A stretch of 64,000 nucleotides of DNA from Candidatus Fervidifonticultor primus (GCA_031459855.1 JAVKHP010000001.1:1993078-2057077), one strand, 5' to 3'; counted from the stretch's first letter, positions 6,063 to 50,655 are shown. A program made the numbers and translations. Notes: generated by a model not told the origin, from the sequence alone.

Positions 6063-6142
6063 CACGTTCATCGTACCCGCCGGCACCCGCGAGCGTCTAC
6101 CGGCAGGACGCGCGCAGCCGTCTTGGGAATCGCTGCCCCGCG

Positions 6143-6385
6143 ATGCAGTTGGGGCTGACGGCGGCGTTGTGCGCCGCCCGTCCCGGTCCGGACCTGCGCA
6201 CGCGGATCCTCCATGACACCTCAGCGGTCCTGTTCGGCGCGTGGTGCCCGGGGGACGTGCCGGTCGACGCGGTCCGGGCGCACGTCGCGGAGCTCACGCG
6301 GCTCGCCCGGCGCGAGTGGTCCGAGGCCGCCATCGAGGCGCCGGTGGTGCTGGAGGCGGCGCGGGCGGGGTCCCAGGATTGCTAG
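6143..6385 (+). CDS. Small hypothetical protein (80 aa)
   Basis: In-frame ATG inside track ORF 5885..6385; very high GC3 across the 80 codons; stop lies 17 nt before the GTPase start, suggesting co-transcription. Confidence 0.4.
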   Translation: MQLGLTAALCAARPGPDLRTRILHDTSAVLFGAWCPGDVPVDAVRAHVAELTRLARREWSEAAIEAPVVLEAARAGSQDC

Positions 6386-6401
6386 AATAGAGGCCGGTAC
6401 C

Positions 6402-7379: not shown

Positions 7380-7547
7380 GCGGCAGGATGCGCCGGCTCC
7401 CGGGCCAGCCGGCGATCCGCGGGCAGCCACCGGGGCGTTCCGTGCAGGGATGGCCACGGCCCCATGGCGCAGCCGGTTCGGAGGTTCCGCCGGGACACAC
7501 GGCCGGAGGCTGTCGCCGGTCACCGGCCGTTGAGCGTCGGGCCTGCT

Positions 7548-8186: not shown

Positions 8187-8195
8187 CGTGCAGGA

Positions 8196-9981: not shown

Positions 9982-10076
9982 GGGAGATGTCCGGGCAACG
10001 CACCGGCCCGGGGCGACGCCTGCGGCGCGCCCCGGGCCAGCGTCACGTCGTGGGGACGTCGATCGTCACGTCCACG

Positions 10077-12858: not shown

Positions 12859-13204
12859 GGCGTCCTCCACTCCGTCAGGTAGTCTGCCCGCGCCGCGCGG
12901 CGCAGGCCAGCCGGCCCCTTTCGTAGCGTCGGCATGTATCGAACGTGTCACGCCGCCCCAACCGGTGCGGTCCGGGACCCAACACGCCCCCGCGGCCCCG
13001 GGCCGCCCGCGTTGTTGGGGTGGAGGCCGTCGCCCTGCGGCGCGGCGGGCCGCCGATGCCGGCGCCGCGCCGGGCTGCCTGGGCACGGGGGATCACCCCC
13101 TCTGCATCGGATGTGCGGGGCCGCCGCCGACCGGGTCCGGCACCTCGTCCCACCGGCACGGCGGTCTGACGGTGCGATCCCCGCGTGGTAGCCGCGTGTG
13201 CGCG

Positions 13205-34797: not shown

Positions 34798-35550
34798 CTA
34801 GTGCGCTCGTTGCCGGCATTTACTGCGGCGCCCGCGCCACAGCGCCCACGTCCCCCAGCCCGCGAGCGCCAGCGCCGGCAGCTGCCCCAGCGTCAGCGGC
34901 CCCAGCGCCCGCATCTCGCTGCGCAGCGCGTCGAAGGCCAGCCGTCCCACCGAGGTGGGCACCACGATGTGCCAGAAGACCTCCCCGGGGAAGCGCCGGC
35001 GGGCGGCGACGCGCCGCGCCCACAGCAGGACGACGACCGCCAGGAGCATCTCGTAGATCTGCAGCGGATGGCGCGGCGCGTCGGGCATCGTCGGGAAGAC
35101 CACACCCCACGGCAGCCCCGTCGGGTCACCGTACAGCTCCCCGTTCATGAAGTTGCCGAACCGCACGAAGACGTTGCCGATCGGCAGTGCCCACCCGAAC
35201 GTGTCGGCGAACTGCCAGACCGAGACCCCCGTGCGGCGCGCCGCCCACAGGGCATAGAGCAGCCCGGCCGCGAGCGCACCGTGCGACGACAGCCCGCCCC
35301 GGTCGACCCGGACGATCTCCCAGAGCGCCGGGACGAACTCGCCCGGGTGGGAGACGACGTAGCCCAGCCGCGCGCCCACGAACATCACGAGCACCGCGGG
35401 AGTGGCGGTGCGGTCGAGCACGGCGGTCGGCACGCCCAGCCGCGGTCCCATGCGGTACGCGACCCACAGGCTCACGCCGATGGTCACAGCGAGCATCACG
35501 CCGTACCAGCGGATCGCCAGGGGACCGAGCTGGACGATCACGGGGTCCAT
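34798..35550 (-). CDS. lgt: Prolipoprotein diacylglyceryl transferase
   Basis: ...LAIRWYGVMLA..., ...GGLSSHGALAAG..., ...FGNFMNGELYG... Lgt signatures. Confidence 0.9.
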   Translation of the reverse strand: MDPVIVQLGPLAIRWYGVMLAVTIGVSLWVAYRMGPRLGVPTAVLDRTATPAVLVMFVGARLGYVVSHPGEFVPALWEIVRVDRGGLSSHGALAAGLLYALWAARRTGVSVWQFADTFGWALPIGNVFVRFGNFMNGELYGDPTGLPWGVVFPTMPDAPRHPLQIYEMLLAVVVLLWARRVAARRRFPGEVFWHIVVPTSVGRLAFDALRSEMRALGPLTLGQLPALALAGWGTWALWRGRRSKCRQRAH

Positions 35551-35675
35551 GCCGGAGCCAGTCTAGCACCGCATGCTGGCCTGCGACAAACGTGCCTGTC
35601 CTTCGGCCACCGCTCGGTCCATGGCGCGGGGCCCTCACAGGAGGACGGGCGTCGCGGGGCAAAAGTGATACCGGC

Positions 35676-37139
35676 ATGAGCGCACGCACCCGTTCCGACG
35701 CCCTCGAGCACGTCCTCGCCGAACTCCGGGGGCTGCTGGGCGACCGCCTCTCGACCGCCGCCGCCGTGCGCGCCCACCACAGCCGGGGCGAGACGTACCT
35801 GCCGCCGCAGCCGCCGGACGCGGTGGCGTTCCCGCAGTCCCTCGACGAGGTGCGCGCCATCGTCGAGGCCTGCGCGCGCTGGCACCTGCCCGTGATCCCC
35901 TACGGGGCGGGCACGTCGCTGGAAGGGCACGTGGCCGCCCCGCACGGCGGGCTCTGCATCGACCTCTCACAGATGACCCGCATCCTGCGCGTCAGCCCTG
36001 AGGACATGGACGCCACCGTCGAGGCGGGGGTCACGCACCGGCAGCTGAACCGCCACCTGCGCCGCTTCGGGCTCTTCTTCTCCGTCGACCCGGGCGCCGA
36101 CGCCACGCTGGGCGGCATGGCCGCCACGCGGGCCTCGGGCACTACCGCGGTGCGCTACGGCACCATGCGCGAGAACGTCCTGGGCCTCACCGTGGTGCTC
36201 GCCGACGGCCGCGTGATCCGCACCGGCACCCGCGCGCGCAAGTCGGCCGCGGGCTACGACCTGACGCGGCTGTTCGTGGGCTCGGAGGGTACGCTCGGGG
36301 TGATCACCGAGGTCACGGTGCGGCTACACGGGGTGCCCGCGGCGGTGGCAGCCGCCACCTGCGCGTTCGCGACGATCGCGGGGGCCGTGGACACCGTCAT
36401 CACCACGGTCCAGCTGGGCATCCCGGTGGCCCGCATCGAGCTCCTCGACGAGGTGCAGATGGACGCCTGCAACCGCTACGCGGGCCTCGACTGCCCGGTG
36501 GCGCCGACGCTCTTCCTGGAGTTCCACGGGCCCAGCGAGCGCAGCGTCGCCGAGCAGGCGGAGATGGTGCGGGAGGTGGCCGCCCAGCACGGCGGACACG
36601 AGTTCCGCTGGGCCACCGACGCCGGGGCGCGCGAGCGGTTGTGGAAGGCGCGGCACGACGCCTACTGGGCGGCGCTCGCCCTGCGGCCCGGCGCCAGCGG
36701 GCTGACCACCGACGTGTGCGTGCCCATCTCACGCCTGACCGAATGCATCGTGGAGACCAAACGCGACCTGGCGACGTCGCCGGTGCCCGTGGCGCTGGTG
36801 GGCCACGTCGGCGACGGCAACTTCCACCTGGTGTTCGTGGTCAATCCCGACGACCCCGCCGAGATGGCCGCGGTCAAGCAGCTCAACGAGCGCATGGTCC
36901 TGCGGGCGCTGGCCCTGGGCGGCACCTGCACCGGCGAGCACGGCGTGGGCCTCGGCAAGCTGCCCTACATGGCCCGGGAACACGGCGAGGCGCTGGAGGT
37001 CATGCGGGCCCTCAAGCGGGCCCTCGATCCGCACGACATCATGAACCCCGGCAAGCTGGTGGCCGGTGGGGGCACGACCGATGTGGCGCACGACCTGGCC
37101 CCGCCGGTTGACACCGGGTGCGGCCCGCGCGTAGACTGA
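35676..37139 (+). CDS. FAD-linked oxidase (GlcD / D-lactate dehydrogenase family)
   Basis: FAD-binding PCMH pattern ...PVIPYGAGTSLEGHV... and C-terminal ...GTCTGEHGVGLGKLPYM...; internal ATG of track ORF 35187..37139. Confidence 0.85.
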   Translation: MSARTRSDALEHVLAELRGLLGDRLSTAAAVRAHHSRGETYLPPQPPDAVAFPQSLDEVRAIVEACARWHLPVIPYGAGTSLEGHVAAPHGGLCIDLSQMTRILRVSPEDMDATVEAGVTHRQLNRHLRRFGLFFSVDPGADATLGGMAATRASGTTAVRYGTMRENVLGLTVVLADGRVIRTGTRARKSAAGYDLTRLFVGSEGTLGVITEVTVRLHGVPAAVAAATCAFATIAGAVDTVITTVQLGIPVARIELLDEVQMDACNRYAGLDCPVAPTLFLEFHGPSERSVAEQAEMVREVAAQHGGHEFRWATDAGARERLWKARHDAYWAALALRPGASGLTTDVCVPISRLTECIVETKRDLATSPVPVALVGHVGDGNFHLVFVVNPDDPAEMAAVKQLNERMVLRALALGGTCTGEHGVGLGKLPYMAREHGEALEVMRALKRALDPHDIMNPGKLVAGGGTTDVAHDLAPPVDTGCGPRVD

Positions 37140-37201
37140 GCGGTGACAGCCGCATAGTGGTGGCGATGGAGCTCGCCAAGCGCCCGGGCGTGCGGGCTGA
37201 T

Positions 37202-37240
37202 AGCTCCTACTGACCGGCAGGTCGGTAGGAGCTTTTTGAT
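37202..37240 (+). terminator. Rho-independent terminator downstream of the FAD-oxidase gene
   Basis: AGCTCCTAC-T-GACC [GGCA] GGTC-G-GTAGGAGCT giving a 14-bp stem (one U-G wobble) followed by TTTTT. Confidence 0.7.
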
Positions 37241-37253
37241 TCTGGGGCGGACC

Positions 37254-37757
37254 ATGGCGCAGACCTCGACGATCGCGATCGAGTTGCTCGAGGACGACGC
37301 CCGCGCCGTCGTGCAGGCGGCAGGCGGCGATGGCCCCGACCTGCCCCACCGGCTGGCCGCGCTGGTGGCCGAGGGCCTGGACCAGTACCTCCGCGACGAG
37401 GCTGCCTGGGAGGTCGCGGCGGGCACGGGTGCTGGAGTCGGAGCCCAGACGCCCTCAGTGGTCCTCCAGCACCGGGAGGCCGAGGCGCTGGTGGTCGTCA
37501 TGCGGGCGCGCACCATCACCAGCGAACGGCACGTCGAGGCCCTGCAAGCACGTGTCCGCGAGCTGGCCCGCGAGCACGCAGCGTACAGGGAGCACATGGC
37601 GCGCCTGCGCACGGCAGCCGGGCACCTGCGGCAACGGCGCGCTCAGCTGCGTGCCGTGCTACATGGCGGGGCGTCGGCCGACGCGGCGACACGCCCGCTC
37701 GCGGTGCGGATCGCTGCCCGCCTGCGCGGGATGCTGCGGCGTGGAACGCCGCCATGA
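37254..37757 (+). CDS. Hypothetical protein, RHH-like N-terminus plus coiled-coil (167 aa)
   Basis: N-terminal strand-helix pattern (...STIAIELLEDDARAVV...) then Arg/Ala/Glu-rich heptad-like region; stop overlaps next gene start (ATGA). Confidence 0.45.
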   Translation: MAQTSTIAIELLEDDARAVVQAAGGDGPDLPHRLAALVAEGLDQYLRDEAAWEVAAGTGAGVGAQTPSVVLQHREAEALVVVMRARTITSERHVEALQARVRELAREHAAYREHMARLRTAAGHLRQRRAQLRAVLHGGASADAATRPLAVRIAARLRGMLRRGTPP

Positions 37758-38260
37758 CGACGCTGATCTTCCCCAAGGTGGCGCAGGTGACCGTGGCACT
37801 GCCCGATGGGCTGCGGCAGCGGTTGGAGACGTTCGCCGCTGCGCGCGGGTGGGGTGTGGACGAGGCCGCGAGGCTGCTGCTGGCCTACGCGGTCGTCACC
37901 CGCGCGGGCCGTGCCCTGACGCCCGAGGAAACGGTCAACAGCTGGAGCGCGGCCCGTGCCGAGCTGGCCCTGTTGCGGCACCGGGCCTACCTGGCCGACG
38001 ACGCCGCGCGGACCCTGCGCATGAACGTCACAGGACTGGAGGCGTCCAACACCCAGTACCGGCGCTCGCTGCCTGCCGTCGAAGCGGAGGTTGCGCGGCT
38101 GGAGGCGGAGATCCGGGACCTGGAAGCCCAGTGCATCCGGCGTGGCCTGCCGGTCCCGGCGCCGGAGCCGGTGGAGCCGCCACCCGCTGCCGCACCGCTG
38201 GACTTCTTCCGGCGCACCCGCGCCGCCGACGGTCGAGGTGATCCGGGTGGCGGCCGGTGA
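37754..38260 (+). CDS. Hypothetical protein, RHH-like N-terminus plus coiled-coil (168 aa)
   Basis: ...VTVALPDGLRQRLETFAAARGWGVDEAARLLLAYAV... resembles ribbon-helix-helix DNA-binding fold; ...AVEAEVARLEAEIRDLEAQ... coiled-coil; same architecture as the preceding gene. Confidence 0.5.
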   Translation: MTTLIFPKVAQVTVALPDGLRQRLETFAAARGWGVDEAARLLLAYAVVTRAGRALTPEETVNSWSAARAELALLRHRAYLADDAARTLRMNVTGLEASNTQYRRSLPAVEAEVARLEAEIRDLEAQCIRRGLPVPAPEPVEPPPAAAPLDFFRRTRAADGRGDPGGGR

Positions 38261-39023
38261 GTCCGCCCTCGCACGGGACTTCGTGTACCACGCGCTGGTG
38301 GCGGGGCTCCATCCCGATCACTGCGTCGTCTGCCGCCTCAGTCTGGACAGTGTCGAGCGCCACTTTCAGGCGTTCTTCTACGAGCAGGTGAACGACCCAT
38401 GGGTGCGGCACGCGCTGGTCGCCGCGCGCGGGTTCTGCCCGACGCACGCCTGGCGGCGTCCCGGGCTGCACGACGCCTCCGGGATCTCCATTGTCTACCA
38501 TCACCTGCTCTCGGAGCTCGTCACGGTGTTTCGGGCTGCCGCCGACAGTGCCGCGCACGCGCGCGCAGGCAGCGCGCCGGTGCGGCGGCGGTGGCGCCTG
38601 CGCCCTGGCCGCCGGGTCGCCGGCGCCCTCGCCGCATGGATGACCCCCCGGGGACCGTGCCCGATGTGCGTGACCCAGTGGGAGGCCGAGGACCGGTATG
38701 CCGCGGTGCTGGTCCGCGCAGCGGCTGCCGACGAGTTCCGGGATCGCTACCGGGACAGCTTCGGCGTGTGCATGCCGCACCTGGTCTTGGCCCTCGGACA
38801 GGGTGCGGCTCCAGCGGCCTGCGACTGGTTGGTGGCCACGGAAGGCGCAAAGCTCGCCCGCCTGCTCTGGGAGCTGTCGGAGTACATTCGCAAGCTGGAC
38901 TACCGGTTCCGGCACGAGACCGTGCTGCGAGAAGCCACGGCGTGGCAGCGCGCCATCGAGAAGCTGGTCGGGGCGCCGGGCATGGTGTGGCGGCGGTCGC
39001 CGACGTCGGCGGATACCCGCTGA
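38238..39023 (+). CDS. Cys/His-rich hypothetical protein with two CxxC...CxxH motif pairs (putative metal-binding)
   Basis: ...HPDHCVVC...(31 aa)...FCPTHAW... and ...CPMC...(32 aa)...CMPHL...; start taken at a GTG overlapping the previous gene's end (38247 also possible); track ORF 38091..39023. Confidence 0.5.
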   Translation: MIRVAAGESALARDFVYHALVAGLHPDHCVVCRLSLDSVERHFQAFFYEQVNDPWVRHALVAARGFCPTHAWRRPGLHDASGISIVYHHLLSELVTVFRAAADSAAHARAGSAPVRRRWRLRPGRRVAGALAAWMTPRGPCPMCVTQWEAEDRYAAVLVRAAAADEFRDRYRDSFGVCMPHLVLALGQGAAPAACDWLVATEGAKLARLLWELSEYIRKLDYRFRHETVLREATAWQRAIEKLVGAPGMVWRRSPTSADTR

Positions 39024-39190
39024 GGACGATGGCCACCGATGCCCGCCCGCGGCCGCGGGGTTGTCGTGCCCACGTCACTACGGTTCACCGTGGAGCCACC
39101 TGATGGAAAGGTGTCCCCGCCGGCGGCCGCGCGGCCGGCAGGCGTGCATGGCGGCCGACGGCGTCGGCACCCTCCCCGCGGCCACGGCCC

Positions 39191-40372
39191 TCACCCGCGT
39201 CTGCGCACCACCACGAAGAGGGGCACAGCCGCCAGCTGCGCCGCCAGCGAGAACACCACGACGGCCGCGACCGCACGATCGTAGAGCGCGCCCATCAACG
39301 CGCTCCCGAGGAACCACGCGATCCCGTACGCGGCGTTGAGCGCGCCGTAGGCGGCACCCCGCCGGTCGGCTGGCGCCATCTCCGCCACCGCGGCCCGCAT
39401 GATCGACTCCTGCGCGCCCAGCCCCACGCCCCACAGCAGCACGCCCGCAAGCGCCAGGGTCGGGCTCCCCAGGAAGGCCAGGGGCACAAACCCCGCCCCA
39501 AGCAGCGTCGCGGGCACCAGCACGGTGACTCCTGCCCGGTCGAACCACCGGCCGAGCCCGAGGGCCGCGACGGCGTCGGCGCCCATGGCGAGGGCGTAGA
39601 AGAGGGGTATCCAGGTCGCTGGGACCACGGCGCGCGCCTCGAAGTGGAAGGCGATGAGGGCGAAGTCCGCATAGCCCGCGCCCACCAGCGCCACGGCCGC
39701 CACGTACAGCCAGAACCGGCGTCCCAGGCCGGCTGGCGCGAGCGGCGGCGTCGCCACGTCCAGGTCGCGCGGACGCGGGTACAGGCGGCGGGCCACCACG
39801 AGCACGCCCAGGGCTAGCGCCGCCGGGACGATCAGGAGGACGAACCCGTCCCGGTACGTGCCCCGGGTGCCCACGGCCGCCGCCACGACGAGCGGGCCCA
39901 GCACGGCCCCGACCTGGTCCAGCGCCTCGTGGAGGCCGAATCCGTAGCCGCGCCCGACCTGCTGGGTGGCATGTGACAGCATGGCGTCGCGGGCCGGCGT
40001 CCGGATCGCCTTGCCGACGCGCTCGGCGACCACCAGCGCGGCGGCCGTGGTCCAGTGCCCTGCCAGCGCCAGCGCCGGGACCGCCGCGAGGTTCACCACG
40101 TAGCCGGTGATCGTGATCGCCCAGTAGCGACGGGTGCGGTCGGCCAGGCGGCCGGAGACCAGGCGCAGCGCGTAGCCGACCAACTCGCCCAGGCCCGCGA
40201 CGACGCCCACCGCAGTGGCGCTGGCTCCCAGCACCGCCAGATAGGGGCCGGTCACGCTGCGCGAGCCCTCGTAGGTGGCGTCGGCGAGCAGGCTCACCAC
40301 GCCCAGCAGGACCACGAACCGGAGGGCTGTCCGGCGGCTGTCCTCGGCGGTGGGTGGCGCGGCGACCATCAC
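39191..40372 (-). CDS. MFS transporter
   Basis: 393 aa, about 12 predicted hydrophobic segments, ...GRLADRTRRY... MFS motif-A-like loop. Confidence 0.85.
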   Translation of the reverse strand: MMVAAPPTAEDSRRTALRFVVLLGVVSLLADATYEGSRSVTGPYLAVLGASATAVGVVAGLGELVGYALRLVSGRLADRTRRYWAITITGYVVNLAAVPALALAGHWTTAAALVVAERVGKAIRTPARDAMLSHATQQVGRGYGFGLHEALDQVGAVLGPLVVAAAVGTRGTYRDGFVLLIVPAALALGVLVVARRLYPRPRDLDVATPPLAPAGLGRRFWLYVAAVALVGAGYADFALIAFHFEARAVVPATWIPLFYALAMGADAVAALGLGRWFDRAGVTVLVPATLLGAGFVPLAFLGSPTLALAGVLLWGVGLGAQESIMRAAVAEMAPADRRGAAYGALNAAYGIAWFLGSALMGALYDRAVAAVVVFSLAAQLAAVPLFVVVRRRG

Positions 40373-40435
40373 CGTACGCTCCGGGTATCAGTGCACCAGC
40401 AGGACCATCGTAGCCGACCAGGATGCGCCGGAACA

Positions 40436-41638
40436 TCAGTCCGCGCCCGTCGTCGCCAGGGCCGTGCTCGACTCCGCCTTGCCCGTCGCCTCGGCGAGGT
40501 GGCGGACCGGGAGGAAGAACCGGTTGGCGATCCAGGTGGGTACCACGGCGCTGGCGATCACCGTCGCCACCAGGAAGGAGTACTGGGCCGGAGTGATGAT
40601 GCCGTGCGACAGGCCGTACAGCGCCGAGATGGTGCCGAACGTGAGGCCGGTGGACATGAGCAGGGTAGTGTACATGCCCTCGGCGTGGGGGTAGCGGTAG
40701 AGGCGGGTCAGGGGGAAGATGCCCACGAACTTACTGACGGCCTTGGCCAGGAAGAGCACCGCGAAGATCCCCGGCGCACCGGCCACCACCGGGACGTTCA
40801 CGAGCGCGCCCGCCCGGAGGAAGTAGAACGGGGTCAGCAGCCCGAAGGTCAGGGTGCGCAGCCGCCGCACCAGCGCATGCTCCCGGCCGACAGTCCCCGC
40901 CAGGACCATGCCGAGGAGGTAGGCCGGGAGGACGGCTTCCGAGCCCGACCACACCGCCAGCCCGCCCAGCACGAACAGCGAGAAGAGCAGGAACCTGGCC
41001 TCGAGTTCCGAGGTACGCCCGCCGTACCGCGCGAAGAACGGACCGGTGGCCCTGAAGAGCACGACCAGCGCGGCCAGTAGCGCGCCAGTGAAGACGAGCG
41101 TGCGCGGCCCAAACGGCGCGAAGATGATGCCCAACGCTACGACCGTGCCGAGGTCGTTGATGAAGCACGCGGCCAGGATGACCTTGCCAAACGGCGACCG
41201 GTTGAGCCCCAGCTCCACCATCACCGCGTAGACGACCGCCACGGACGTCGTCGAGAGGGCCACCCCGGCCAGGAGGCTGGCCTGGAGGTCCCATCCCAAG
41301 AGGGTCCGTGCGGCCCACGCGGCTCCCAGGAACGGAGCCAGGAACCCGACCAGCCCCACGGCCGTCGCTTCCCGCCAGCTGCGGCGAAATGCGTCGGGGT
41401 CGAGTTCCACCCCGGCCAGGAACGTGAGCACGATCGACCCCAGTCCGGCGAGGAAGGCGATCCAGTCGCGGCGCACGCCCAGCGCGTCCACCCCGAGCAG
41501 GGTGCTGAAGACCACCTGCGCGACGGTGCCGACGACGATCTCCGCAAGCGCCACCGAGACCTTGAGCCAGGTGGACAGCAGCGTGGCGATGAGCGCGAGG
41601 CCCAGCCAGACGGCCGCACTGAACCACACGTGGTCCAT
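40436..41638 (-). CDS. Cation:proton antiporter (CPA2 / Na+-H+ exchanger family)
   Basis: ...LGLALIATLLSTWLKVSVALAEIVVG... and overall 400-aa hydrophobic pattern of KefB/NapA-type exchangers; ATG at 41638 inside track ORF 40436..41707. Confidence 0.85.
   Translation of the reverse strand: MDHVWFSAAVWLGLALIATLLSTWLKVSVALAEIVVGTVAQVVFSTLLGVDALGVRRDWIAFLAGLGSIVLTFLAGVELDPDAFRRSWREATAVGLVGFLAPFLGAAWAARTLLGWDLQASLLAGVALSTTSVAVVYAVMVELGLNRSPFGKVILAACFINDLGTVVALGIIFAPFGPRTLVFTGALLAALVVLFRATGPFFARYGGRTSELEARFLLFSLFVLGGLAVWSGSEAVLPAYLLGMVLAGTVGREHALVRRLRTLTFGLLTPFYFLRAGALVNVPVVAGAPGIFAVLFLAKAVSKFVGIFPLTRLYRYPHAEGMYTTLLMSTGLTFGTISALYGLSHGIITPAQYSFLVATVIASAVVPTWIANRFFLPVRHLAEATGKAESSTALATTGAD
41351..41391. 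repeat. 41-bp repeat copy 1, inside the antiporter coding sequence
   Basis: About 90% identical (37/41) to 47281..47321; here it encodes ...DAFRRSWREATAVG... of the antiporter. Confidence 0.5.
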
Positions 41639-42077
41639 GGGTACGCTCCTGTGGGGTAGCGGCACGCGACGGGCGGCCCCTACCCGCGGAATGTGGGTAG
41701 GAGCCATCAGCCCGAAGAGGGCGGTTCAGGCGGGCCCCATCGCCTGGGCTGGATTATAGGTGCTCCCGGGAGAGTGCGTCCAGTCCTCCTGGCCGCAGAG
41801 GCCATCCTCGTCGCAGGGGTCACCGGCATCCGGCCGTACCAGGCCCCGCGGCGACCGTAGCGGCGCATCACCCGCGCCACACCAGGTTGTTACCCAGGGC
41901 TGCAGAGCCGCTGGCAGTAGACTCTGCGCACCTCTCGCGTCCGTATTCGGGATGCTGCGGCGCGCGCATGACGCGGAAAGCGCTCTGGGGGAGAGGCGGT
42001 GTGCATCTTCTGGCCCGGGGGAGATGGCCCTGACCTTACGCCATCAAGTTAGATGGCGGATGGCGCGATTCGCGCGG

Positions 42078-42107
42078 TAGCCAGGGCTGTCCGTTGCCAC
42101 GTATAAT
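42078..42107 (+). promoter_or_regulatory. Candidate promoter for the sugar ABC operon
   Basis: TATAAT at about 42102-42107 with a weak -35-like TAGCCA 18 bp upstream; about 75 bp before the binding-protein start. Confidence 0.25.
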
Positions 42108-42182
42108 TCACTATAGGAACATGGAGTCCGCATTGTGGACAGATGCAGAGGTTGCCGAGCCCGATACCGGGAGGTGAGCAGG

Positions 42183-43490
42183 ATGCGTAGGCAGGGACTG
42201 AGTGATTTCGCCCGGATCCTAACGGTCCTCGTAGTCGGCATCGTAGTTGGCTCCTCCCCCGCCTGGTCCGCAGAAGTCGTCACGTTGCGATTCTCCAACT
42301 GGCACCTGGTGGAGACCGTCTGGGGGCGCTCTCTGCGCGAGGCGATTGCGATCTTCGAGAGTCAGAACCCTGGCATCCGGATCGTTCCCGAGCCGATTTC
42401 CTACGCGGAGAAAGAACCGCGTTACCAGGCCGAGTGCGCCGCCCGACGTATGCCCGACGTGGTGAAGTTGCACAACTTCTCGCTGACCATGTTCTTCGAA
42501 CTGGGCTGCGCCGCCGACCTCACGCCCTTCGTGCAGCGCGAGGGGCCGGACTTCCTCAGGACCTGGTACGAAACGCCGATCAAGACCCTGACCTACAAGG
42601 GCAGACTCCTGGCGATGCCAGGGGACTTCATGTCGATGGTCCTGATCTACAACCGGGAACTGTTCCGGGCCGCGGGGCTGGATCCCAACAGGCCTCCGCG
42701 GAACTGGACTGAGTTCCTCGACTACGCGAAGCGGCTTACCCGCGACACCGACGGTGACGGCCGGACCGACCAGTGGGGCTTCAGCATGCCGGCGTCCAAG
42801 AACCCCGGTTTGCCGCTACGCATTGCACCAATCGTTTGGAGCTTTGGCGCCGACTTCCTGACGCCTGACGGCCGGCGCTCGGCCATGGACACACGCGAGT
42901 TTCGAGAAGCTTTCTCCTACATTGTCGACTTGGCGACGGCACACCGTGTGGTCCCGCCAGGGGTCACCACCTTTGGCCCCGGCGACGTGCGCACGCAGAT
43001 GGCGCATCGGCGGGTGGCGATGAAGATCGGGTCGGGCTGGTCGTACCCCATCATCAACGACATCAACCCGGCCCTGAAGGCCTACGAGACGCTGGAGGCT
43101 GCGCCCGTACCCGTCGGGCGCAAGCAGGTCACCATGGCGTGGCTTTCGGGGTGGATCATGAGTCCGCACACCCGGTACCCCGAGGCCGCGTGGAAGTTCA
43201 TCAAGTTCCTCACCAGCAAGGAGACCGAGAAGAAGTTTTTCTTCGACAACCGGGTGATTTCGTCGCGCAAGGACGTCAACACGTTGCCCATGGTCCAAAC
43301 CGACAAGTTCTCGAAGGTGATTGTGTCACAGCTCCAGTACGCGAGACTCGAGCCGCTCATCCCGGAGTGGCCCGAGATCTTCGACACCTTCGCCACCGCG
43401 CTGCAGGAGGCGATCACCGGGGCGAAAGCTCCTGATCGGGCCCTTGCCGAGGCCCACGCGAGGGTCAATACGATCCTGGGGGTGCGGTGA
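42183..43490 (+). CDS. Sugar ABC transporter substrate-binding protein (family 1)
   Basis: Signal peptide, 436 aa, family-1 carbohydrate-binding pattern; GGGAGGTGA upstream of ATG; GC3 visibly lower than neighbouring genes. Confidence 0.9.
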   Translation: MRRQGLSDFARILTVLVVGIVVGSSPAWSAEVVTLRFSNWHLVETVWGRSLREAIAIFESQNPGIRIVPEPISYAEKEPRYQAECAARRMPDVVKLHNFSLTMFFELGCAADLTPFVQREGPDFLRTWYETPIKTLTYKGRLLAMPGDFMSMVLIYNRELFRAAGLDPNRPPRNWTEFLDYAKRLTRDTDGDGRTDQWGFSMPASKNPGLPLRIAPIVWSFGADFLTPDGRRSAMDTREFREAFSYIVDLATAHRVVPPGVTTFGPGDVRTQMAHRRVAMKIGSGWSYPIINDINPALKAYETLEAAPVPVGRKQVTMAWLSGWIMSPHTRYPEAAWKFIKFLTSKETEKKFFFDNRVISSRKDVNTLPMVQTDKFSKVIVSQLQYARLEPLIPEWPEIFDTFATALQEAITGAKAPDRALAEAHARVNTILGVR

Positions 43491-44413
43491 ACATCGTGAG
43501 AGGCCGGCCCGCGCCGGCCTCTCACGGCTTCAGAGCTCGCGGGCGCGCCGCGTGCCTGCCGCGGCTGCGCGACGCGCACCTCGGGTACGTCTTCATCGCC
43601 CCGACGCTCCTGCTACTGGGTGTGGTCCTGGCGTACCCCGCCTACGAGAGCGTGCGCCTGAGCCTCAGCCCGCGTGGAGGCGGGGGAGTCACCCTCGTCC
43701 AGTACGTGGGGCTGGTGCAGTCCGACCTCTTCCGGCAGGTGGTCTGGCAAACGGCGGTCTTCGTGACGGCCAGCGTGACGGCGCACGTTGTGCTGGGGCT
43801 TGCCGTGGCCCTGGTGCTCAACCGGCCGCTGTGGGGACGGACGGGCTTCAGGATCCTGGCCTTGTTACCGTGGGTGGTCCCTGATGTCGTAGCCGGGATC
43901 ATCTGGAAGTGGATTCTAAACCCCCTGTACGGGGTGCTCAACGACGCCCTGGCCCGGTTGGGACTGATTGCGCACCCGGTGGAGTGGCTGACCAATCCGT
44001 CGCTGGTCTTGTTCAGCGTGATCCTGGCCAACGTCTGGCGAGGCTTCCCCTTCGTCATGATCATTTTCCTGGCGGGCCTGCAGAGCATCCCGACCGAACT
44101 GTACGAAGCCGCGGCCATCGACGGGGCGGGGACCCTCCAGCGCTTTCGGCACGTAACCTTGCCCGGACTGCGCCGGGTCTTCATCGTGGCCCTGGCCCTC
44201 GACACCATCTGGGAGACGCGCCGGTTCGGTCTCGTCCAGGCAATGACCGGTGGCGGCCCGGGCACCCTCAGTGAGGTCCTCTCGACCCAGGTGTTCAAGC
44301 AGTACTTCCAGTTCTTCAAGTTCGAGTTCGCGTCGGCGATGGCCATCGCGATGACGGGACTGCTGCTGTTCGTGTCAATTCCGTACGTGCGGATGATCGT
44401 TCGAGAGGAGTAG
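43487..44413 (+). CDS. Sugar ABC transporter permease (MalF/UgpA-like)
   Basis: ...EAAAIDGAGTLQRFRHVTLPGL... EAA-loop region; start overlaps binding-protein stop. Confidence 0.9.
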   Translation: MNIVRGRPAPASHGFRARGRAACLPRLRDAHLGYVFIAPTLLLLGVVLAYPAYESVRLSLSPRGGGGVTLVQYVGLVQSDLFRQVVWQTAVFVTASVTAHVVLGLAVALVLNRPLWGRTGFRILALLPWVVPDVVAGIIWKWILNPLYGVLNDALARLGLIAHPVEWLTNPSLVLFSVILANVWRGFPFVMIIFLAGLQSIPTELYEAAAIDGAGTLQRFRHVTLPGLRRVFIVALALDTIWETRRFGLVQAMTGGGPGTLSEVLSTQVFKQYFQFFKFEFASAMAIAMTGLLLFVSIPYVRMIVREE

Positions 44414-44420
44414 CCTGCCC

Positions 44421-45269
44421 GTGGACCTGCCAGCCATCTACAGCCGCTCGCGTCTCGTCTTGGCCTTGGTGTACGTCTTCGCGGGACTCGTGGGCATCTT
44501 AGTCTTCTTCCCTTTCGTGTGGATGGTGCTGACCTCGCTCAAGACGGAGACCGAGGCCTTGCGGATTCCGGTGGTGTGGCTGCCGGACCGCCCCACCCTG
44601 GCTGCCTACGTCACCATGTGGTTGCGAAAGAACTACGCGACGTACTTCTTCAACAGCGCAGTAGTGTCGTTGACCACAGCGGTGATCTCGACACTGTTGG
44701 GCGCCATGGCCGGCTACGGGTTCTCGCGCTTCGCGCTGCGCGGGCGCGGGGTCCTCATGGGGCTGGTGCTCATCAGCCAGATGCTCCCCGGGGTCCTGGT
44801 GGTGGGGCCCTACTTCAAGATCCTCTCGGCCGTTGGTCTCTACGACACCCGCACCGGCCTCATCATCGCATTCCTGACCATCTGCCTGCCCTTTGCCACC
44901 TGGATGCTCAAGGGCTTCATCGACGGTGTGCCGCGGGAACTGGACGAGGCGGCGATGGTCGACGGCTGCAGTCGGTGGCGTATCTTCGTGGGAATCGTCC
45001 TCCCGCTGATCCGTCCGGGCATGGTGGCCACCATGCTCTTTGCGTTTCTGCTGGCATGGGGTGACCTGTTGTGGGTGTCGACTCTCACGCACAGCGAGGG
45101 CATGGTGACCGTCACGCTGGCCATTGCCCGGACGGTCCTCGAGTTCTACGTAAACTGGCCCGAACTGATGGCGGGTGCCCTCATGGGTGGGTTCCCCGGA
45201 ATCGTGTTGTACTTGTTAATGCAGCGGTGGCTGGTCGCCGGACTGACGGCGGGCGCCATCAAACAGTAG
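44421..45269 (+). CDS. Sugar ABC transporter permease (MalG/UgpE-like)
   Basis: ...DEAAMVDGCSRWRIFVGIVLPL... EAA-loop; 282 aa. Confidence 0.9.
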   Translation: MDLPAIYSRSRLVLALVYVFAGLVGILVFFPFVWMVLTSLKTETEALRIPVVWLPDRPTLAAYVTMWLRKNYATYFFNSAVVSLTTAVISTLLGAMAGYGFSRFALRGRGVLMGLVLISQMLPGVLVVGPYFKILSAVGLYDTRTGLIIAFLTICLPFATWMLKGFIDGVPRELDEAAMVDGCSRWRIFVGIVLPLIRPGMVATMLFAFLLAWGDLLWVSTLTHSEGMVTVTLAIARTVLEFYVNWPELMAGALMGGFPGIVLYLLMQRWLVAGLTAGAIKQ

Positions 45270-45279
45270 GAGGCGGTCG

Positions 45280-46350
45280 ATGCGCGGCGTTATGAAGGTG
45301 GGACGCGGCCCCGGCCTCGTAGAACTCCACGAGGTCCCCGACCCGCAGCCGGGGCCGGGCGAAGTGCTGATCGCGGTGGCGGCGGCGGCCATTTGCGGGA
45401 GCGACCTGCACATCTTCCACGATCGTCATCCGTACTGGCCGCCGGTCATCCTCGGCCACGAGTTCGCGGGAACTGTCGCGGCAGTGGGGGAAGGCGTCAG
45501 TGGTTATGCCATCGGGGATCGGGTCGTTTCCGAGACCAGCACAGGGAGCTGCGGCGTGTGTTTCCTGTGCCGCAGCGGCAACAGGCAGATTTGCGAGCAC
45601 AAGCGCGCGCTGGGGATCGGGACGAATGGGGCGTTTGCGCACTACGTGGTTGCGCCTGCCTCGTTGCTCCATCGAGTCCCTGACGGGGTGCCGCTGGAAG
45701 AAGCCGCCCTTACCGAGCCGACGGCCATTGCCGTCCACGCTATCGTTGAGCGCATGAAGGTGGCGCCGGGCGAAACCGTCGTCATCAGCGGCCCCGGGCC
45801 CATTGGCCTGCTGTGCCTGCAGGTGGCCCGGGCGGCAGGCGCCGGTCTGATCGTCGTCAGCGGGACACCCACCAGCGCGCGCCTGCGGTTGCAAGTGGCC
45901 CGGACGGTCGGTGCAGACGTGATCGTCAACATTGGGGAGGAAGACTTGGTCCACCGGGTCCTAGCCCTGACCGACGGTCGCGGGGCCGACGTGGCGGTGG
46001 AAACCTCCGGGGCACCGCAGGCCGTGGAGGCCCTGCCACGCCTGACCAGGCGGCTGGGGCGCATCGGCCTGCTGGGCGTGACCGGACACCCGACGGTACC
46101 GTTCCCTGCCGATGTCGCGCTCTTCAAGGGCCTGGAGGTGCAGTGCTCGTTCAGCAGCAAGCACACCAGCTGGGTGACGGCACTCCGTCTGCTGGCATCC
46201 GGTCAGGTGCGGGTGCGACCGCTTCTGACGACGGCGGTCCCACTGGAACGATGGCAAGAGGCCTTCGAGGCGCAAGAGCAGGGCAGGGCGATCAAGACGT
46301 TGCTGATGCCCTCCCGGTGGCCGCAGAACCTGGCGGAGGGACGAGGATGA
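45280..46350 (+). CDS. Zinc-dependent alcohol/polyol dehydrogenase (MDR family, sorbitol-dehydrogenase-like)
   Basis: ...ICGSDLHIF...GHEFAGTV... catalytic-zinc motif, ...CGVCFLCRSGNRQIC... structural-zinc motif, ...ISGPGPIGL... Rossmann motif. Confidence 0.9.
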   Translation: MRGVMKVGRGPGLVELHEVPDPQPGPGEVLIAVAAAAICGSDLHIFHDRHPYWPPVILGHEFAGTVAAVGEGVSGYAIGDRVVSETSTGSCGVCFLCRSGNRQICEHKRALGIGTNGAFAHYVVAPASLLHRVPDGVPLEEAALTEPTAIAVHAIVERMKVAPGETVVISGPGPIGLLCLQVARAAGAGLIVVSGTPTSARLRLQVARTVGADVIVNIGEEDLVHRVLALTDGRGADVAVETSGAPQAVEALPRLTRRLGRIGLLGVTGHPTVPFPADVALFKGLEVQCSFSSKHTSWVTALRLLASGQVRVRPLLTTAVPLERWQEAFEAQEQGRAIKTLLMPSRWPQNLAEGRG

Positions 46351-47255
46351 GCAGGAGCAGCCGCCGGGACGTGCAGTCTGTCGACCGCGCCATGGTACTC
46401 CTGGCCGCGCTGGGCGAGGCTGGATGTCCACTGGGCGTCCGCGAGCTCAGCGCCCGGGTCATGCTTCCTCGGCCTACCGTCTACCGCCTCCTGCAAACGC
46501 TGGAACACCACGGTGCCGTCACTGCCGCCGACGGACGTTTCATGATCGGGCCTCGCATCCTGTGGCTGGCGGCCCAACGTCTCGAACACATCGAACTGCG
46601 CACCGTCGGACGGCCGTTTCTCCTGGACCTGCGGGACCGGACCGGCGAGACGGTTCACCTGGCCGTCCTGGAGCAGGGTCAGGTCGTCTACGTGGACAAG
46701 GTCGAGCCACCGGGCCCGATGCGCATGGCCTCGGCGGTCGGAAAGATCATGCCGGCACATTGTACGGCGCTGGGCAAGGCCATGCTGGCCCATCTGCCTC
46801 GGGAGCAGGTCCGCGAGGTCCTCGCCCGCCATGGGATGCCGCAGCGCACGCGGCAGACGATCACCAATGCCGACGTGCTGTTGGCGGAACTGGACGCTGT
46901 CCGCGCACGCGGGTATGCCGTTGACAACGTGGAGAACGAAGAGGGTATCCGCTGCGTGGGGGCTGCCATCTTCGACCACCGAGGCGAGGTGGTGGGCGCT
47001 GTCAGCGTGTCTGGAGCCGTCCGCGCCCTGACGCTGGAGCGGATTCGCCGTGACCTCGGCCCATGTGTCCGGGACACGGCAGAGTGGATATCGCGGGCCA
47101 TGGGCTGGCAGACGCCTCGACGATCGGCGACCGCCGAGGGGCGACCGGGGGATCGCCGGACGCAGACCCGCCTGCCGGGACGCATGATCCCGCGGCGTGG
47201 CCAGGCGGCCGTGGTCTCGGGTCGCACGCGTGGGCCGGCGCGCGCCGGAGGCTGA
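46347..47255 (+). CDS. IclR-family transcriptional regulator
   Basis: N-terminal wHTH ...SVDRAMVLLAAL...VRELSARVMLPRPTVYRLLQTL... and IclR effector domain; ATG overlaps ADH stop (ATGA). Confidence 0.85.
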   Translation: MSRSSRRDVQSVDRAMVLLAALGEAGCPLGVRELSARVMLPRPTVYRLLQTLEHHGAVTAADGRFMIGPRILWLAAQRLEHIELRTVGRPFLLDLRDRTGETVHLAVLEQGQVVYVDKVEPPGPMRMASAVGKIMPAHCTALGKAMLAHLPREQVREVLARHGMPQRTRQTITNADVLLAELDAVRARGYAVDNVENEEGIRCVGAAIFDHRGEVVGAVSVSGAVRALTLERIRRDLGPCVRDTAEWISRAMGWQTPRRSATAEGRPGDRRTQTRLPGRMIPRRGQAAVVSGRTRGPARAGG

Positions 47256-47280
47256 CTGCGTTCACCGCACCGGACTCTTC

Positions 47281-47321
47281 CAAGCCCACGGCCGTCGCTT
47301 GCCGCTAGCTGCGGCGAAATG
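47281..47321. repeat. 41-bp repeat copy 2, between IclR gene end and IS fragment
   Basis: About 90% identical to 41351..41391; a mismatch creates the TAG that ends the truncated transposase ORF. Confidence 0.5.
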
Positions 47322-47652
47322 TCTGGCGGGGAAACCGGAGGCCCTCGCGCTCCCAGAGCAACTCGGTGAGGTGATGATCGTTCACGCCCGCATAGGTGGT
47401 GCGGGCCAGGGTGAGGACGCTGACCCGGACAGCCTCGGGGAGGCGCCGCGAGGAGGGGCGGCCGCGGTTGCCATGGACGAGGGCTGCGAGGCCCTGCTGG
47501 CGCAGGCGGGCCAGCAGCCCGCGGAGGTGGCGAAGCGACAGCCCCAACAGCACGGCGGCCTCTGTCGCCCGGAGCACCCCGTGCTGCACCCGGACCAAGA
47601 CCTGGACACGGTGTTGCTCTTTGCGGGTCAAGGCAATCGTCTCCCTAGTCAT
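47305..47652 (-). mobile_element. IS transposase N-terminal HTH fragment (truncated, likely pseudogene)
   Basis: 115-aa ORF ...LTRKEQHRVQVL...EAAVLLGLSLRHLRGLLARLRQQGLAALVHGNRGRPSSRRLP... matches the N-terminal HTH of IS transposases as I remember them; ORF ends after 115 aa inside the repeat, with no catalytic domain. Confidence 0.55.
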
Positions 47653-47781
47653 GCCCTCAGGGTGACAGATTCACTGAGCCGTTAGGGGGTGACAAAATCA
47701 ATGAGCTATTACACACCCGCGCACAGGGGTTGACGCCCACGTCAGGCTGTGCTAGTTTGACACTCAAACTGCATAGGCGTG

Positions 47782-47886
47782 CTCTTATCAAGAGTGGGTG
47801 AGGGACGGGCCCGATGACCCCCGGCAACCTGCCGCCGCCGCGGTAAGGTGCCAAGCCCCGCGGAACCCAGTTCCGGCGGATAAGAG
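47782..47886 (+). promoter_or_regulatory. SAM-I (S-box) riboswitch aptamer
   Basis: CTCTTATCAAGAG..GGGTGAGGGAC.GGCCCGATGA..CCCGGCAACC...GGTGCCAA..CCCGCGGAA...GGATAAGAG: P1 pairing and conserved S-box core elements; candidate promoter TTGACG-17-TAGTTT at about 47730-47758. Confidence 0.8.
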
Positions 47887-47891
47887 GGTGG

Positions 47892-47930
47892 AACCCCTCC
47901 AAGCGCAGGAAGTGGAGGGGTTTCTTGTTA
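47892..47930 (+). terminator. Riboswitch expression-platform terminator
   Basis: AACCCCTCCA / TGGAGGGGTT 10-bp stem with 11-nt loop followed by T-rich TCTTGTT, ending just before the thrB-like GTG at 47932. Confidence 0.7.
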
Positions 47931-47931
47931 C

Positions 47932-48852
47932 GTGTGGCAGCGGGAGATGGGCGTGGCGGTTGCGCTGGAACGGGTCACGGTGCACGTGCCGGCGACGGTG
48001 GCGAACCTCGGGCCGGGCTTCGATTGCCTGGGCGCGGCGGTGAACCTGTTCGCCGAGGTCACCCTGGCGCCGGCGTCGACGCCGCGCGTCGAGGTGGCCG
48101 GCGTCGACGTGCCGCAGGACGCCACGAACCTGATCTACCGTAGCGCCCAGGCGGCAGCGGCGGCGGCGGGCTGGCAGGGGGCGTTCGCGCTGCGCGCGCG
48201 CTGGCCGATCCCGCTGCGCAGCGGCTTGGGCAGCAGCGCGGCAGCCATCGTCGGCGGGCTCGTGGCGGCGCACCGGCTGCTGGGCGACGCCCTGGACGCC
48301 CAGACGCTGCTGCGGCTGGCCACCGACCTCGAAGGCCACCCGGACAACGTGGCGGCAGCGCTGTTCGGCGGCGTGGTGGTCGTGGCACGTGACGGATCGG
48401 AGGTGCGGTGGGCGCGCATCGCGCCGGTGCTGCCGCTGGCCGTGGTGCTGGCGGTGCCCGCCCTCGAGATCGAGACCGCCGCAGCGCGGCGGGTGCTGCC
48501 AGCACAGGTCGCGCACGCCGACGCGGTGTTCAACGTGGCGCGCACGGCGCTGGTGGTGACGGCGCTGGCCACCGGGCAGGCGCAGGCCCTGCGGGGCGCC
48601 CTGCGCGACCGGCTGCACCAGCCGTACCGCGCGCCGCTGGTGCCGGGGTTCGCCGCAGTGGTCGCCGCGGCGGAAGACGCAGGCGCCTACGGTGCGGTGC
48701 TCAGCGGCTCGGGGCCTACGGTGGCGGCCCTGACGCCCCCCGCAGCGGCGGGCGCGGTGGGCGCGGCCATGGTGGCGGCGTTCGCGGCAGCCGGCGTGCA
48801 GAGCCGCGCGCTCGAGACGCAGATCGAGTTGCGGGGGGCGCTGGGGGGCTAG
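47932..48852 (+). CDS. thrB: Homoserine kinase (GHMP kinase); possibly MetM-type in a methionine pathway
   Basis: ...VPATVANLGPGFDCLGAAV... and GHMP motif ...RSGLGSSAAAIVGG...; 306 aa. Confidence 0.85.
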   Translation: MWQREMGVAVALERVTVHVPATVANLGPGFDCLGAAVNLFAEVTLAPASTPRVEVAGVDVPQDATNLIYRSAQAAAAAAGWQGAFALRARWPIPLRSGLGSSAAAIVGGLVAAHRLLGDALDAQTLLRLATDLEGHPDNVAAALFGGVVVVARDGSEVRWARIAPVLPLAVVLAVPALEIETAAARRVLPAQVAHADAVFNVARTALVVTALATGQAQALRGALRDRLHQPYRAPLVPGFAAVVAAAEDAGAYGAVLSGSGPTVAALTPPAAAGAVGAAMVAAFAAAGVQSRALETQIELRGALGG

Positions 48853-49132
48853 GCCGACGGCCGGGCACCTGCCGGTGGAGGGGCCCGTGGGTGACCGTGC
48901 AGTGCGCGATGGACTCTGACTGCGCGATCCAGGCGGCCTGGCGGGTCTAGTGAGTGCGACCGGCAGCCGGTGCTGATGCAGTGTGCCGCACGTTCACCGC
49001 GCGCGATCGCGTCGCAGCCCGCGGCGCCTGGACGCACGGGCAAGCCCTGTGGGGCGCGCGGGAAGCCGACGCGTGCGGTGGGAGCCGGCGGGTCGGCTGA
49101 ATGGCACGACGACGGCGTGGGGGAGGCGGGAG

Positions 49133-50359
<1,227 letters not shown>

Positions 50360-50370
50360 GGAGGACGACA

Positions 50371-50655
50371 GTGGCAACGATCCGCATTCCCACGCCCATG
50401 CGGCGGTACACCAATGGCGAGCGTCTGGTGACGGTCGAGGCGTCGACGCTGGCGGCGGCGATCGACGAGCTGGGCCGGCGCTTCCCCGGGCTGCGCGAGC
50501 GCCTGGTGAACGGCGACGGACAGCTGCACCACTTCGTGAACGTCTTCGTCAACGAGCAGGACGTGCGCACGCTGCAGGGCCTCGACACCCCGCTGGACGA
50601 GCGCGCCGAGGTGTCCATCATTCCCGCCATGGCCGGAGGTGCGCCGGCGTGGTAG
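50371..50655 (+). CDS. MoaD/ThiS-family sulfur-carrier protein (CysO-like)
   Basis: ...GQLHHFVNVFVNEQDVRTLQGLDTPLDERAEVSIIPAMAGG-APAW resembles CysO (...LHRFVNIYVNDEDVR...AVAGG) as I recall it; GTG with GAGGAGG upstream; Gly-Gly is followed by four residues. Confidence 0.65.
   Translation: MATIRIPTPMRRYTNGERLVTVEASTLAAAIDELGRRFPGLRERLVNGDGQLHHFVNVFVNEQDVRTLQGLDTPLDERAEVSIIPAMAGGAPAW

Follow-up and report, generated by a model that had tools for sequence, protein, structure and literature searches.

Among described systems, the small IS-associated genomic islet is a close comparison for a variable locus in a hot-spring bacterium, Candidatus Fervidifonticultor primus. The locus lies in a window of 64 kb (the whole stretch of DNA that was analysed, 64,000 nucleotides) from a high-GC metagenome-assembled genome (MAG), which carries the NCBI label 'Armatimonadota bacterium' and whose nearest named relatives belong to Ca. 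Sysuimicrobiota. Between the core genes lgt and thrB, the window holds a block of fluoride-response genes that includes a cation:proton antiporter, a five-gene sugar cassette and the remnant of an insertion sequence (IS). A 42-nucleotide (nt) piece of the antiporter gene recurs between the cassette and the IS remnant. With a probability of roughly 0.7, the interval is best read as a mosaic of fluoride block, acquired cassette and IS stump that carries the scars of illegitimate recombination. Taken as a whole, the locus amounts to a small accessory cassette of an ordinary kind at a chromosomal hot spot, and no new mechanism is needed to account for it.

With genomic islets the locus shares a deviant composition, a patchy distribution at differing loci and an IS remnant at one border, here a stump of the ISNCY family at the right border that supplies the mobility gene expected of a genomic island. 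It also shares a site between core genes, lgt and thrB, at which the cargo varies from relative to relative. It is unlike them in having no integrase, transfer RNA (tRNA), att or target duplication, or second IS copy; no repeat marks its borders, its cassette is eroded, and part of it is probably ancestral DNA. A further comparison is provided by arrays of Rhs and type VI secretion system genes, in which orphan 3' regions and immunity genes have been attributed to homology-facilitated illegitimate recombination (PMC5361080). As in those arrays, a fragment of a neighbouring gene stands in the same orientation downstream of new DNA and between non-homologous junctions. The present fragment differs in that it is 42 nt only, comes from internal codons (84-97), belongs to no array and bears no sign that would favour this mechanism over duplication and deletion. 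The IS remnant resembles the ISNCY family (NF033594) in its helix-turn-helix (HTH) N-terminus and conserved terminal ~70 nt, but it is 400 nt long only and has no catalytic (DDE) region, right inverted repeat (IRR) or target duplication. The cassette, in turn, resembles CUT1-type ABC sugar operons with an IclR/KdgR-like regulator in its substrate-binding protein (SBP, of the SBP_bac_1 family), two BPD_transp_1 permeases, IclR gene and conserved operator. It has no dedicated ATPase, a trait common to its homologues. Missing from it are SDR and Ldh_2, which each of the five homologous cassettes (loci L084, L085, L086, L089 and L099) possesses, and also the PfkB and aldolase genes seen in some.

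The features on which the argument turns are set out below; their anatomy, homologies and breakpoints, like the composition and selection statistics, are observed directly.

38262-47721, no strand: variable segment of 9460 nt (9.46 kb) absent from the relative L105, from the DUF6062 gene through the IS stump
40436-41638, minus strand: intact CPA2 cation:proton antiporter gene, 400 amino acids (aa) (PF00999, 5e-40), with a GC content at third codon positions (GC3) of 0.93
41350-41391, minus strand: repeat copy 1, codons 84-97 (FRRSWREATAVGL) of the intact antiporter
41783-42100, no strand: 318-nt left spacer between the antiporter promoter and the cassette
42078-42140, plus strand: promoter/operator region of the cassette, conserved with L084 and L099 in the upstream alignment
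42101-47150, plus strand: sugar or sugar-acid cassette, 85% nt identity to L084 4298-8543 and 80% to L084 10360-11175, with Pfam and NCBIfam matches
42183-43490, plus strand: SBP (SBP_bac_1, Pfam)
43487-44413, plus strand: permease 1 (BPD_transp_1, Pfam)
44421-45269, plus strand: permease 2 (BPD_transp_1, Pfam)
45280-46350, plus strand: zinc-dependent alcohol dehydrogenase (Zn-ADH; ADH_N/ADH_zinc_N, Pfam)
46320-46336, plus strand: deletion junction with a short GC(C)GG microhomology, from the three-way alignment with L084
46347-47255, plus strand: IclR regulator (Pfam/NCBIfam), stop codon lost, with a 38-aa read-through tail
47151-47279, no strand: 129-nt spacer, GC 0.76; cassette homology to L084 ends at ~47150
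47280-47321, minus strand: repeat copy 2, orphan fragment of antiporter codons 84-97 with derived TGG>TAG and GAA>CAA changes
47305-47652, minus strand: truncated transposase open reading frame (ORF) of 115 codons, an HTH-only N-terminus with a tail from copy 2
47322-47721, minus strand: 5' stump of an ISNCY-family IS, comprising its terminal ~70 nt and transposase codons 1-111 (NF033594)

The direct repeat provides the clearest trace of rearrangement. In a repeat search of the window its two copies, spaced 5930 nt apart, are identical at 38 of 42 positions (90%). By blastn within the window, a 37-nt core aligns at 94.6% identity (E 6e-11, 59 bits), compared with a peak of 28.6±2.9 bits for shuffled queries of similar length, and no third copy appears anywhere in the 64 kb. 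Independent evidence comes from Logan contigs of run SRR27730047, in which both copies and their junctions recur at 100% identity (L001 covers 40274-42320 and L082 covers 44838-47676), so that an assembly artefact is an unlikely source of either.

Copy 2 has the same orientation as copy 1 and translates as FRRS*RQATAVGL. Its TGG>TAG and GAA>CAA changes strike a Trp and a Glu that are kept by orthologues, while the remaining two differences are synonymous and sit at the extreme end of the match; the core holds just two differences, each of them a non-synonymous change in copy 2. Since copy 2 is closer to copy 1 than to any orthologue (at most 29 of 42 positions), its source is the antiporter of this same lineage or an allele very close to it. 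The combination of a nonsense and a radical change at conserved residues indicates that copy 2 is a dead fragment of antiporter coding sequence that decayed after it ceased to be a gene. On its right, the fragment joins transposase codon 111 through a 2-nt CA microhomology, as judged against related IS copies, and the truncated transposase ORF takes its final four residues and its stop from antiporter sequence. On its left stands the 129-nt spacer, where neither blastn nor local alignment detects any trace of antiporter codon 98 onward. Two illegitimate-recombination breakpoints, one at the transposase and one at the spacer, thus bound copy 2.

An initial annotation of this DNA had described a 41-bp segment of the antiporter gene recurring at about 90% identity 5.9 kb away, and had taken it to flank an island and to be a recombination scar next to a truncated transposase. 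The repeat is reproduced, at one nucleotide longer, and its identification as a scar is supported; its placement at the island's borders is not. Copy 1 lies inside the antiporter ORF, ~750 nt to the left of the cassette edge, and the stretch between the copies takes in the antiporter 5' end, its riboswitch and promoter, the 318-nt spacer, the cassette and the 129-nt spacer. Given that position, the mismatches at 4 of 42 positions and the non-homologous junctions around copy 2, the repeat is a scar made of antiporter sequence and neither an att site nor a target duplication.

The repeat is without function. One regulatory reading, in which antisense RNA from cassette readthrough would be induced with the sugar cassette and would down-regulate the fluoride/pH antiporter in trans, is barely credible. 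Complementarity is what speaks for it: RNA reading through IclR would be complementary to antiporter codons 84-97 at 38 of 42 positions with a strong predicted duplex, and no terminator is predicted after IclR. If true, it would amount to a regulatory link born of a recombination scar. As for the 129-nt spacer, nothing rises above the shuffle background when it is aligned with the window, the loci, the DNA downstream of the cassette in L084 and L099, or the antiporter regions. A templated patchwork was considered for this spacer and rejected, as its 39-nt, 79% inverted match to 43481-43519 scores 29.5 bits, which the shuffled queries reach by chance.

Turning to the cassette, its family has the gene order SBP, permease, permease, Zn-ADH, SDR, Ldh_2 and IclR. 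The full seven-gene form is that of L084, L085/L086 and L099; in L089 the run comprises six genes, with IclR sitting upstream. The window is collinear with L084 from ~42101 to 46334 at 85% nt identity, and again from 46334 to ~47150 at 80%. Its five genes keep the order of their L084 counterparts at 81-94% aa identity, and the seven-gene collinearity is interrupted by a deletion of 1816 nt (L084 8544-10359) that extends from the first SDR codons to the last Ldh_2 codons. At the junction the ADH stop is changed from TGA to TGG, lengthening that ORF by 10 codons. By this comparison the window cassette is a truncated derivative of the seven-gene family that lost SDR and Ldh_2 via a microhomology deletion, and the catabolic route at this locus is incomplete. 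Pairwise comparison with L084 gives dN/dS of 0.05-0.16 at dS of 0.5-0.8; with ratios this low, the surviving genes are under purifying selection.

The operator ahead of the cassette holds a GGACA...TGTCC inverted repeat. Relatives of the cassette's SBP range from 79 to 91% aa identity, several of them in MAGs labelled Armatimonadota or Armatimonadetes. The flanks of the cassette vary among L084, L085/L086, L089 and L099, and only L084 and L099 share a left flank, consisting of tRNA-Arg and tRNA-Ser(GCU). The tRNA-Ser(GCU) genes (L084 4069-4163, L099 598-692) stand ~220 nt upstream of a full-length cassette and are 95% identical to each other, compared with ~77% for the adjoining genes. Beside the window cassette, an Rfam scan and tRNA calling reveal no tRNA or integrase. 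In the 318-nt spacer, the ORF has no Pfam match, and a degraded tRNA-Ser or other homology was set aside: alignments to the DNA upstream of the cassette in L084 and L099 score no higher than shuffles, and tRNA calling is negative. IS-like genes adjoin the L084 cassette; having no similarity to the window IS, they were rejected as the same element.

The composition of the 42-48 kb region sets it apart from the remainder of the window. GC per kb is 0.63-0.68 there and 0.69-0.78 elsewhere (0.655 for the cassette vs 0.72-0.74), and the tetranucleotide distance from the window mean peaks over the same kilobases at 3.16, compared with at most 1.96 elsewhere. GC3 is 0.84 for the SBP, 0.88 and 0.87 for the permeases, 0.81 for Zn-ADH and 0.80 for IclR; these values are lower than those of the 40 ORFs outside the segment (0.905±0.043; Mann-Whitney p=0.0025), and the fluoride-block genes, at 0.87-0.93, are not unusual. 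A large part of the fall in GC reflects the low GC1 (0.58-0.66) of the SBP and permeases, whose orthologues elsewhere have equally low GC1 yet a GC3 of 0.91-0.97. About half of the dip is a matter of amino-acid composition and not of codon choice. All five cassette genes nevertheless fall below the native GC3 mean, including ADH and IclR with their normal GC1 and GC2. With L089 as the outgroup that polarises third-position changes, 122 GC>AT stand against 4 AT>GC changes in the window copy and 35 against 15 in the L084 copy, and the GC3 of the host genome is higher than that of L084's. An AT-ward shift is unexpected for a resident of the GC-richer genome; it would fit a past in a lower-GC3 background such as that of L099 (GC3 0.83-0.91) or L085 (0.68-0.82). 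Pseudogene drift as a cause of the low GC3 is ruled out by the dN/dS values. In L084 itself, the cassette (4386-11167) has a GC3 of 0.89-0.97, above that of its neighbours (0.70-0.87), and so it is a compositional outlier in both places, in opposite directions.

The extent of the variable unit was delimited with L105, the nearest of the relatives found. It is a 4.4-kb JGI contig that came from a metagenome scan with the thrC-like protein of the window and is 86-92% identical to the window in nt. L105 3-2295 corresponds to window 35952-38261 and L105 2350-3505 to window 47722-48875; between them are 54 unmatched nt for which window 38255-47730 holds no counterpart. L105 keeps the small hypothetical genes p173 and p168, the first two genes of a fluoride-riboswitch operon, and is without DUF6062, MFS transporter and antiporter genes. 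As it retains operon genes 1 and 2 without gene 3, L105 has probably deleted part of the block; very probably it carries its own deletion and does not represent a clean empty site. It shows the region to be variable and fixes the start of the native right flank. Two relatives at 72-78% nt identity add to the picture. In L103, lgt is followed by the S-adenosylmethionine (SAM) riboswitch of thrB within 175 nt, and in L102 the two are separated by 3.7 kb of other DNA. The corresponding 12.2 kb of the window (34798-47782) hold an FAD-linked oxidase gene, the fluoride block, the cassette and the IS. Since the contents differ in this way, the lgt-thrB interval is an accretion zone and a recurrent insertion hot spot. 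The cassette is absent from the interval in L102, L103 and L105, where, in the last, the larger segment is lacking, probably through its own deletion.

In light of these results, the sugar-utilisation island of the initial annotation can be redrawn. Its gene content, from the binding protein and two permeases to a transposase truncated to its HTH portion, is as first described, and its more frequent A/T-ending codons are borne out, modestly, along with a tetranucleotide maximum at the cassette. The notion of an acquired or rearranged module gains from the foreign composition and from nearest kin (85% nt) that lie in unrelated contexts; it loses some force to the amino-acid share of the GC dip. 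The cassette is real, but the proposed interval is the right-hand two-thirds of a larger variable unit that also includes the antiporter, there called native, and the MFS and DUF6062 genes. The module is not intact either, with two genes deleted and the ADH and IclR stops displaced.

At the right border, the transposase ORF matches NF033594 at 2e-18 and 66.7 bits (cutoff 250) over profile positions 2-98 of 368; its homologues continue beyond residue 111 into the DDE region, which the window ORF does not reach. The terminal ~70 nt of the IS are conserved with L097 and L098, and the outer end of the stump falls at the right edge of the stretch that L105 lacks. The restart of L105 homology at 47722, together with the L097/L098 alignment, places the stump at 47322-47721. 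A second IS copy, as a composite transposon would have, is not found in the 64 kb, where blastn of 47200-47790 matches the antiporter only. The window likewise has no IRR-like end, inverted partner or target duplication, and the sole tblastn match of the transposase stump to plasmids is a 42% one from Vibrio. By its content, the IS is a dead stump and not an element. Other ISNCY-like copies (L097 264-737, L098 321-677 and P0144) are also 5' stumps with various cut points, fused to unrelated genes; in one, 68 transposase residues run into the C-terminus of a Zn-dependent dehydrogenase. The ISNCY-like element was nowhere recovered at full length.

The direction of gain or loss, the donor and the order of events we infer as follows. 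The fluoride block (DUF6062, MFS and the CPA2 antiporter with its riboswitch) is probably ancestral at this site and would have been lost secondarily in L105. An ISNCY element would have inserted just upstream of the thrB promoter, and a seven-gene cassette for carbohydrate uptake and oxidation would have arrived horizontally from a related lineage with lower GC3. This cassette would later have lost SDR and Ldh_2 by microhomology deletion, with the rest still held by purifying selection. At least two illegitimate recombination events would have made the orphan fragment. By a local route, a tandem duplication from antiporter codon 97 through the cassette would have been followed by deletion of nearly all of the second copy and of the IS 3' part, leaving 42 nt that then decayed. 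Within the overall model this route is tentatively favoured, at something short of an even chance, because no donor with an antiporter next to the cassette occurs among the loci examined and because the differences that are not ambiguous are of the decay type and lie in copy 2.

Several points weigh against the mosaic as just described. No donor of the cassette was identified, and no source was found for the 318-nt spacer in alignments to L084 and L099, or for the 129-nt spacer in alignments to the loci and the window. The GC3 shift is modest (z from -0.7 to -2.5), and leaves three cassette genes out of five less than 1.5 sd from the native mean. Given its very probable deletion, L105 does not prove that the cassette was ancestrally absent. 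In the collections searched, no genome above ~90% nt identity spans the locus, and gain as opposed to loss and the insertion borders are judged accordingly. For housekeeping proteins encoded in the window, protein collections offer partners at 92-99%, and LigA, NuoF, FAH and ThyX have 98-99% partners in a near-identical strain (90% protein clusters; fragmentary assembly). The antiporter, ADH, IclR and permease have no partner in that assembly, but neither do thrB, p168 and p173, which indicates that the assembly is simply incomplete. Exact matches of the ThiS-like protein encoded downstream of thrB lie on contigs of about 1 kb only. Finally, nothing separates duplication and deletion from a route through transformation and repair, since the 2-4 differences between the copies fit both.

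In that latter route, the chief rival, an early deletion from the IS to codon 84 would have killed the antiporter, and DNA from a related strain, carrying an antiporter with an adjoining cassette, would have restored it by homology-facilitated illegitimate recombination. A homologous crossover in or to the left of the antiporter would have been paired with an illegitimate one 42 nt short of the old breakpoint, leaving the 42 nt in place. The attraction is that a single step covers the arrival of the cassette, the same-orientation fragment and the divergence of the copies, with a selective rationale, in a region demonstrably prone to deletion (as in L105). The mechanism is documented (PMC3240628) and has served elsewhere to explain stranded 3' ends of genes; it is rare relative to homologous exchange (both PMC5361080). 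The collections contain neither the donor that it calls for nor a recipient from before the event: the cassette loci L084, L085, L086, L089 and L099 have no neighbouring antiporter, and antiporter loci (L002, L091, L094 and others) have no neighbouring cassette. Moreover, with both core differences non-synonymous in copy 2, the pattern is that of decay of an identical copy and not of allelic divergence. Repair of this kind is possible, if on balance improbable. Quite improbable is IS-driven delivery, in which the 9.46 kb, or the cassette with the stump, would have moved as a composite transposon or by one-ended ISNCY mobilisation, with later truncation of the IS. The geometry suits it, since the left inverted repeat is outermost and the direction of the transposase is towards the cargo. 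The stretch missing in L105 ends on the right at the outer end of the IS, and 5' stumps of this IS family recur beside unrelated genes. The left border and the surroundings of the cassette, however, offer no second IS, IRR-like end or target duplication. The left third of the segment completes a native operon and is arranged identically in L002, which a transposon would not produce, and the 54-nt stretch of L105 is absent from the window rather than split by an insertion.

A vertically inherited cassette must also be weighed against the mosaic. On this account the low GC would stem from transporter amino acids and from weak codon bias in genes of low expression, and the repeat and IS would be unrelated damage. 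It draws on the low GC1 common to all SBP and permease orthologues, the modest GC3 shift, the low dN/dS, and the 91% identity of the SBP to its counterparts in L084-type MAGs, which is comparable to that of NuoD (about 91%) to MAGs of the same series. It is strained by the depressed GC3 of all five cassette genes, ADH and IclR among them, by the strongly AT-ward third positions in a genome of higher GC3 than L084's, and by the location of the cassette elsewhere in most genomes sampled, with none in the lgt-thrB interval of L102, L103 or L105. A resident cassette is accordingly a poor prospect next to the mosaic of ancestral block, acquired cassette and IS stump.

The fluoride block that forms the left part of the segment, and the operon to which it is attached, comprise the following features in addition to the antiporter.

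37153-37216, plus strand: weak fluoride riboswitch (Rfam RF01734, 37.9 bits)
37236-37757, plus strand: p173, small hypothetical protein, conserved in L105
37754-38260, plus strand: p168, small hypothetical protein, conserved in L105
38247-39023, plus strand: DUF6062 gene, third in the riboswitch operon (PF19538, 1.2e-13; the 258-aa form is an exact collection match)
39191-40369, minus strand: MFS transporter gene (PF07690; the 392-aa form is an exact collection match)
41691-41753, minus strand: antiporter fluoride riboswitch (RF01734, 56.8 bits against a gathering score of 34)
41753-41782, minus strand: promoter-like site TGGACG-N18-TATAAT from the promoter scan, serving the antiporter

Na+/H+ antiporters are the second commonest class of riboswitch-associated genes (PMC11139923). 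In the window, a riboswitch above its gathering score precedes a PF00999 antiporter, and this unit is conserved in relatives, with a riboswitch upstream of the antiporter in L002, L091 and L094 as well. The best relative of the antiporter among 5.8 billion proteins has 78% aa identity, and a genome contig scan finds none above that value either. The MFS and antiporter genes converge on the operon of riboswitch, p173, p168 and DUF6062. From 37153 to 41782 the window is syntenic gene for gene with Ca. Fervidifonticultor quartus (L002), where the MFS transporter has 65% aa identity, and partly so with L091; the DUF6062 gene is syntenic in both. The riboswitch operon, consisting of 173- and 168-aa coiled-coil proteins and DUF6062, is found at L002 14570-12860 and L091 16997-15229 (both Ca. 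Sysuimicrobiota), and in L091 it runs on into a TPR gene and two MutS_V genes. From its riboswitch and gene content, window 37153-39023 looks like an uncharacterised fluoride-response operon.

On the right, the native flank begins with the regulatory region of thrB.

47730-47758, plus strand: putative thrB promoter, TTGACG (47730-47735), N17, TAGTTT (47753-47758); hexamers taken from the sequence itself and not called by the promoter scan
47782-47886, plus strand: SAM riboswitch ahead of thrB (RF00162, 85.7 bits), in a right flank (47722-47886) conserved in L105

An apparent similarity to L097 and L098, upstream of the conserved IS terminus, had suggested a thrB promoter located within the end of the IS; this was rejected, as the promoter region from 47722 on is conserved in L105, which is free of the IS. 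The SAM riboswitch, thrB, a threonine-synthase-like gene with an N-terminal Zn-ribbon and a 94-aa ThiS/MoaD-family gene (50371-50655, PF02597) occupy 47782-50655. This set resembles the MetM/MetO route from O-phosphohomoserine to homocysteine, not threonine synthesis, and the 'thrC' label may be wrong. The arrangement of riboswitch and thrB is kept in L102-L105. Elsewhere in the window, a 94-nt 'tRNA-Asn' called by ARAGORN at 12923-13016 (minus strand) is probably a false positive, as the Rfam gathering scan reports no tRNA there.

The importance of the locus is limited, and its value lies in particulars. It supplies base-level breakpoints for three illegitimate-recombination events. In the annotation, the cassette becomes a truncated one, the transposase a pseudo-transposase and repeat copy 2 an orphan gene fragment. 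The locus also carries the caution that a 'flanking repeat' need not mark the borders of an island. For the uncultivated thermophilic phylum to which the organism is related (Ca. Sysuimicrobiota/CSP1-3), it documents a lgt-thrB hot spot in which fluoride genes, a sugar cassette and an IS have gathered and eroded.

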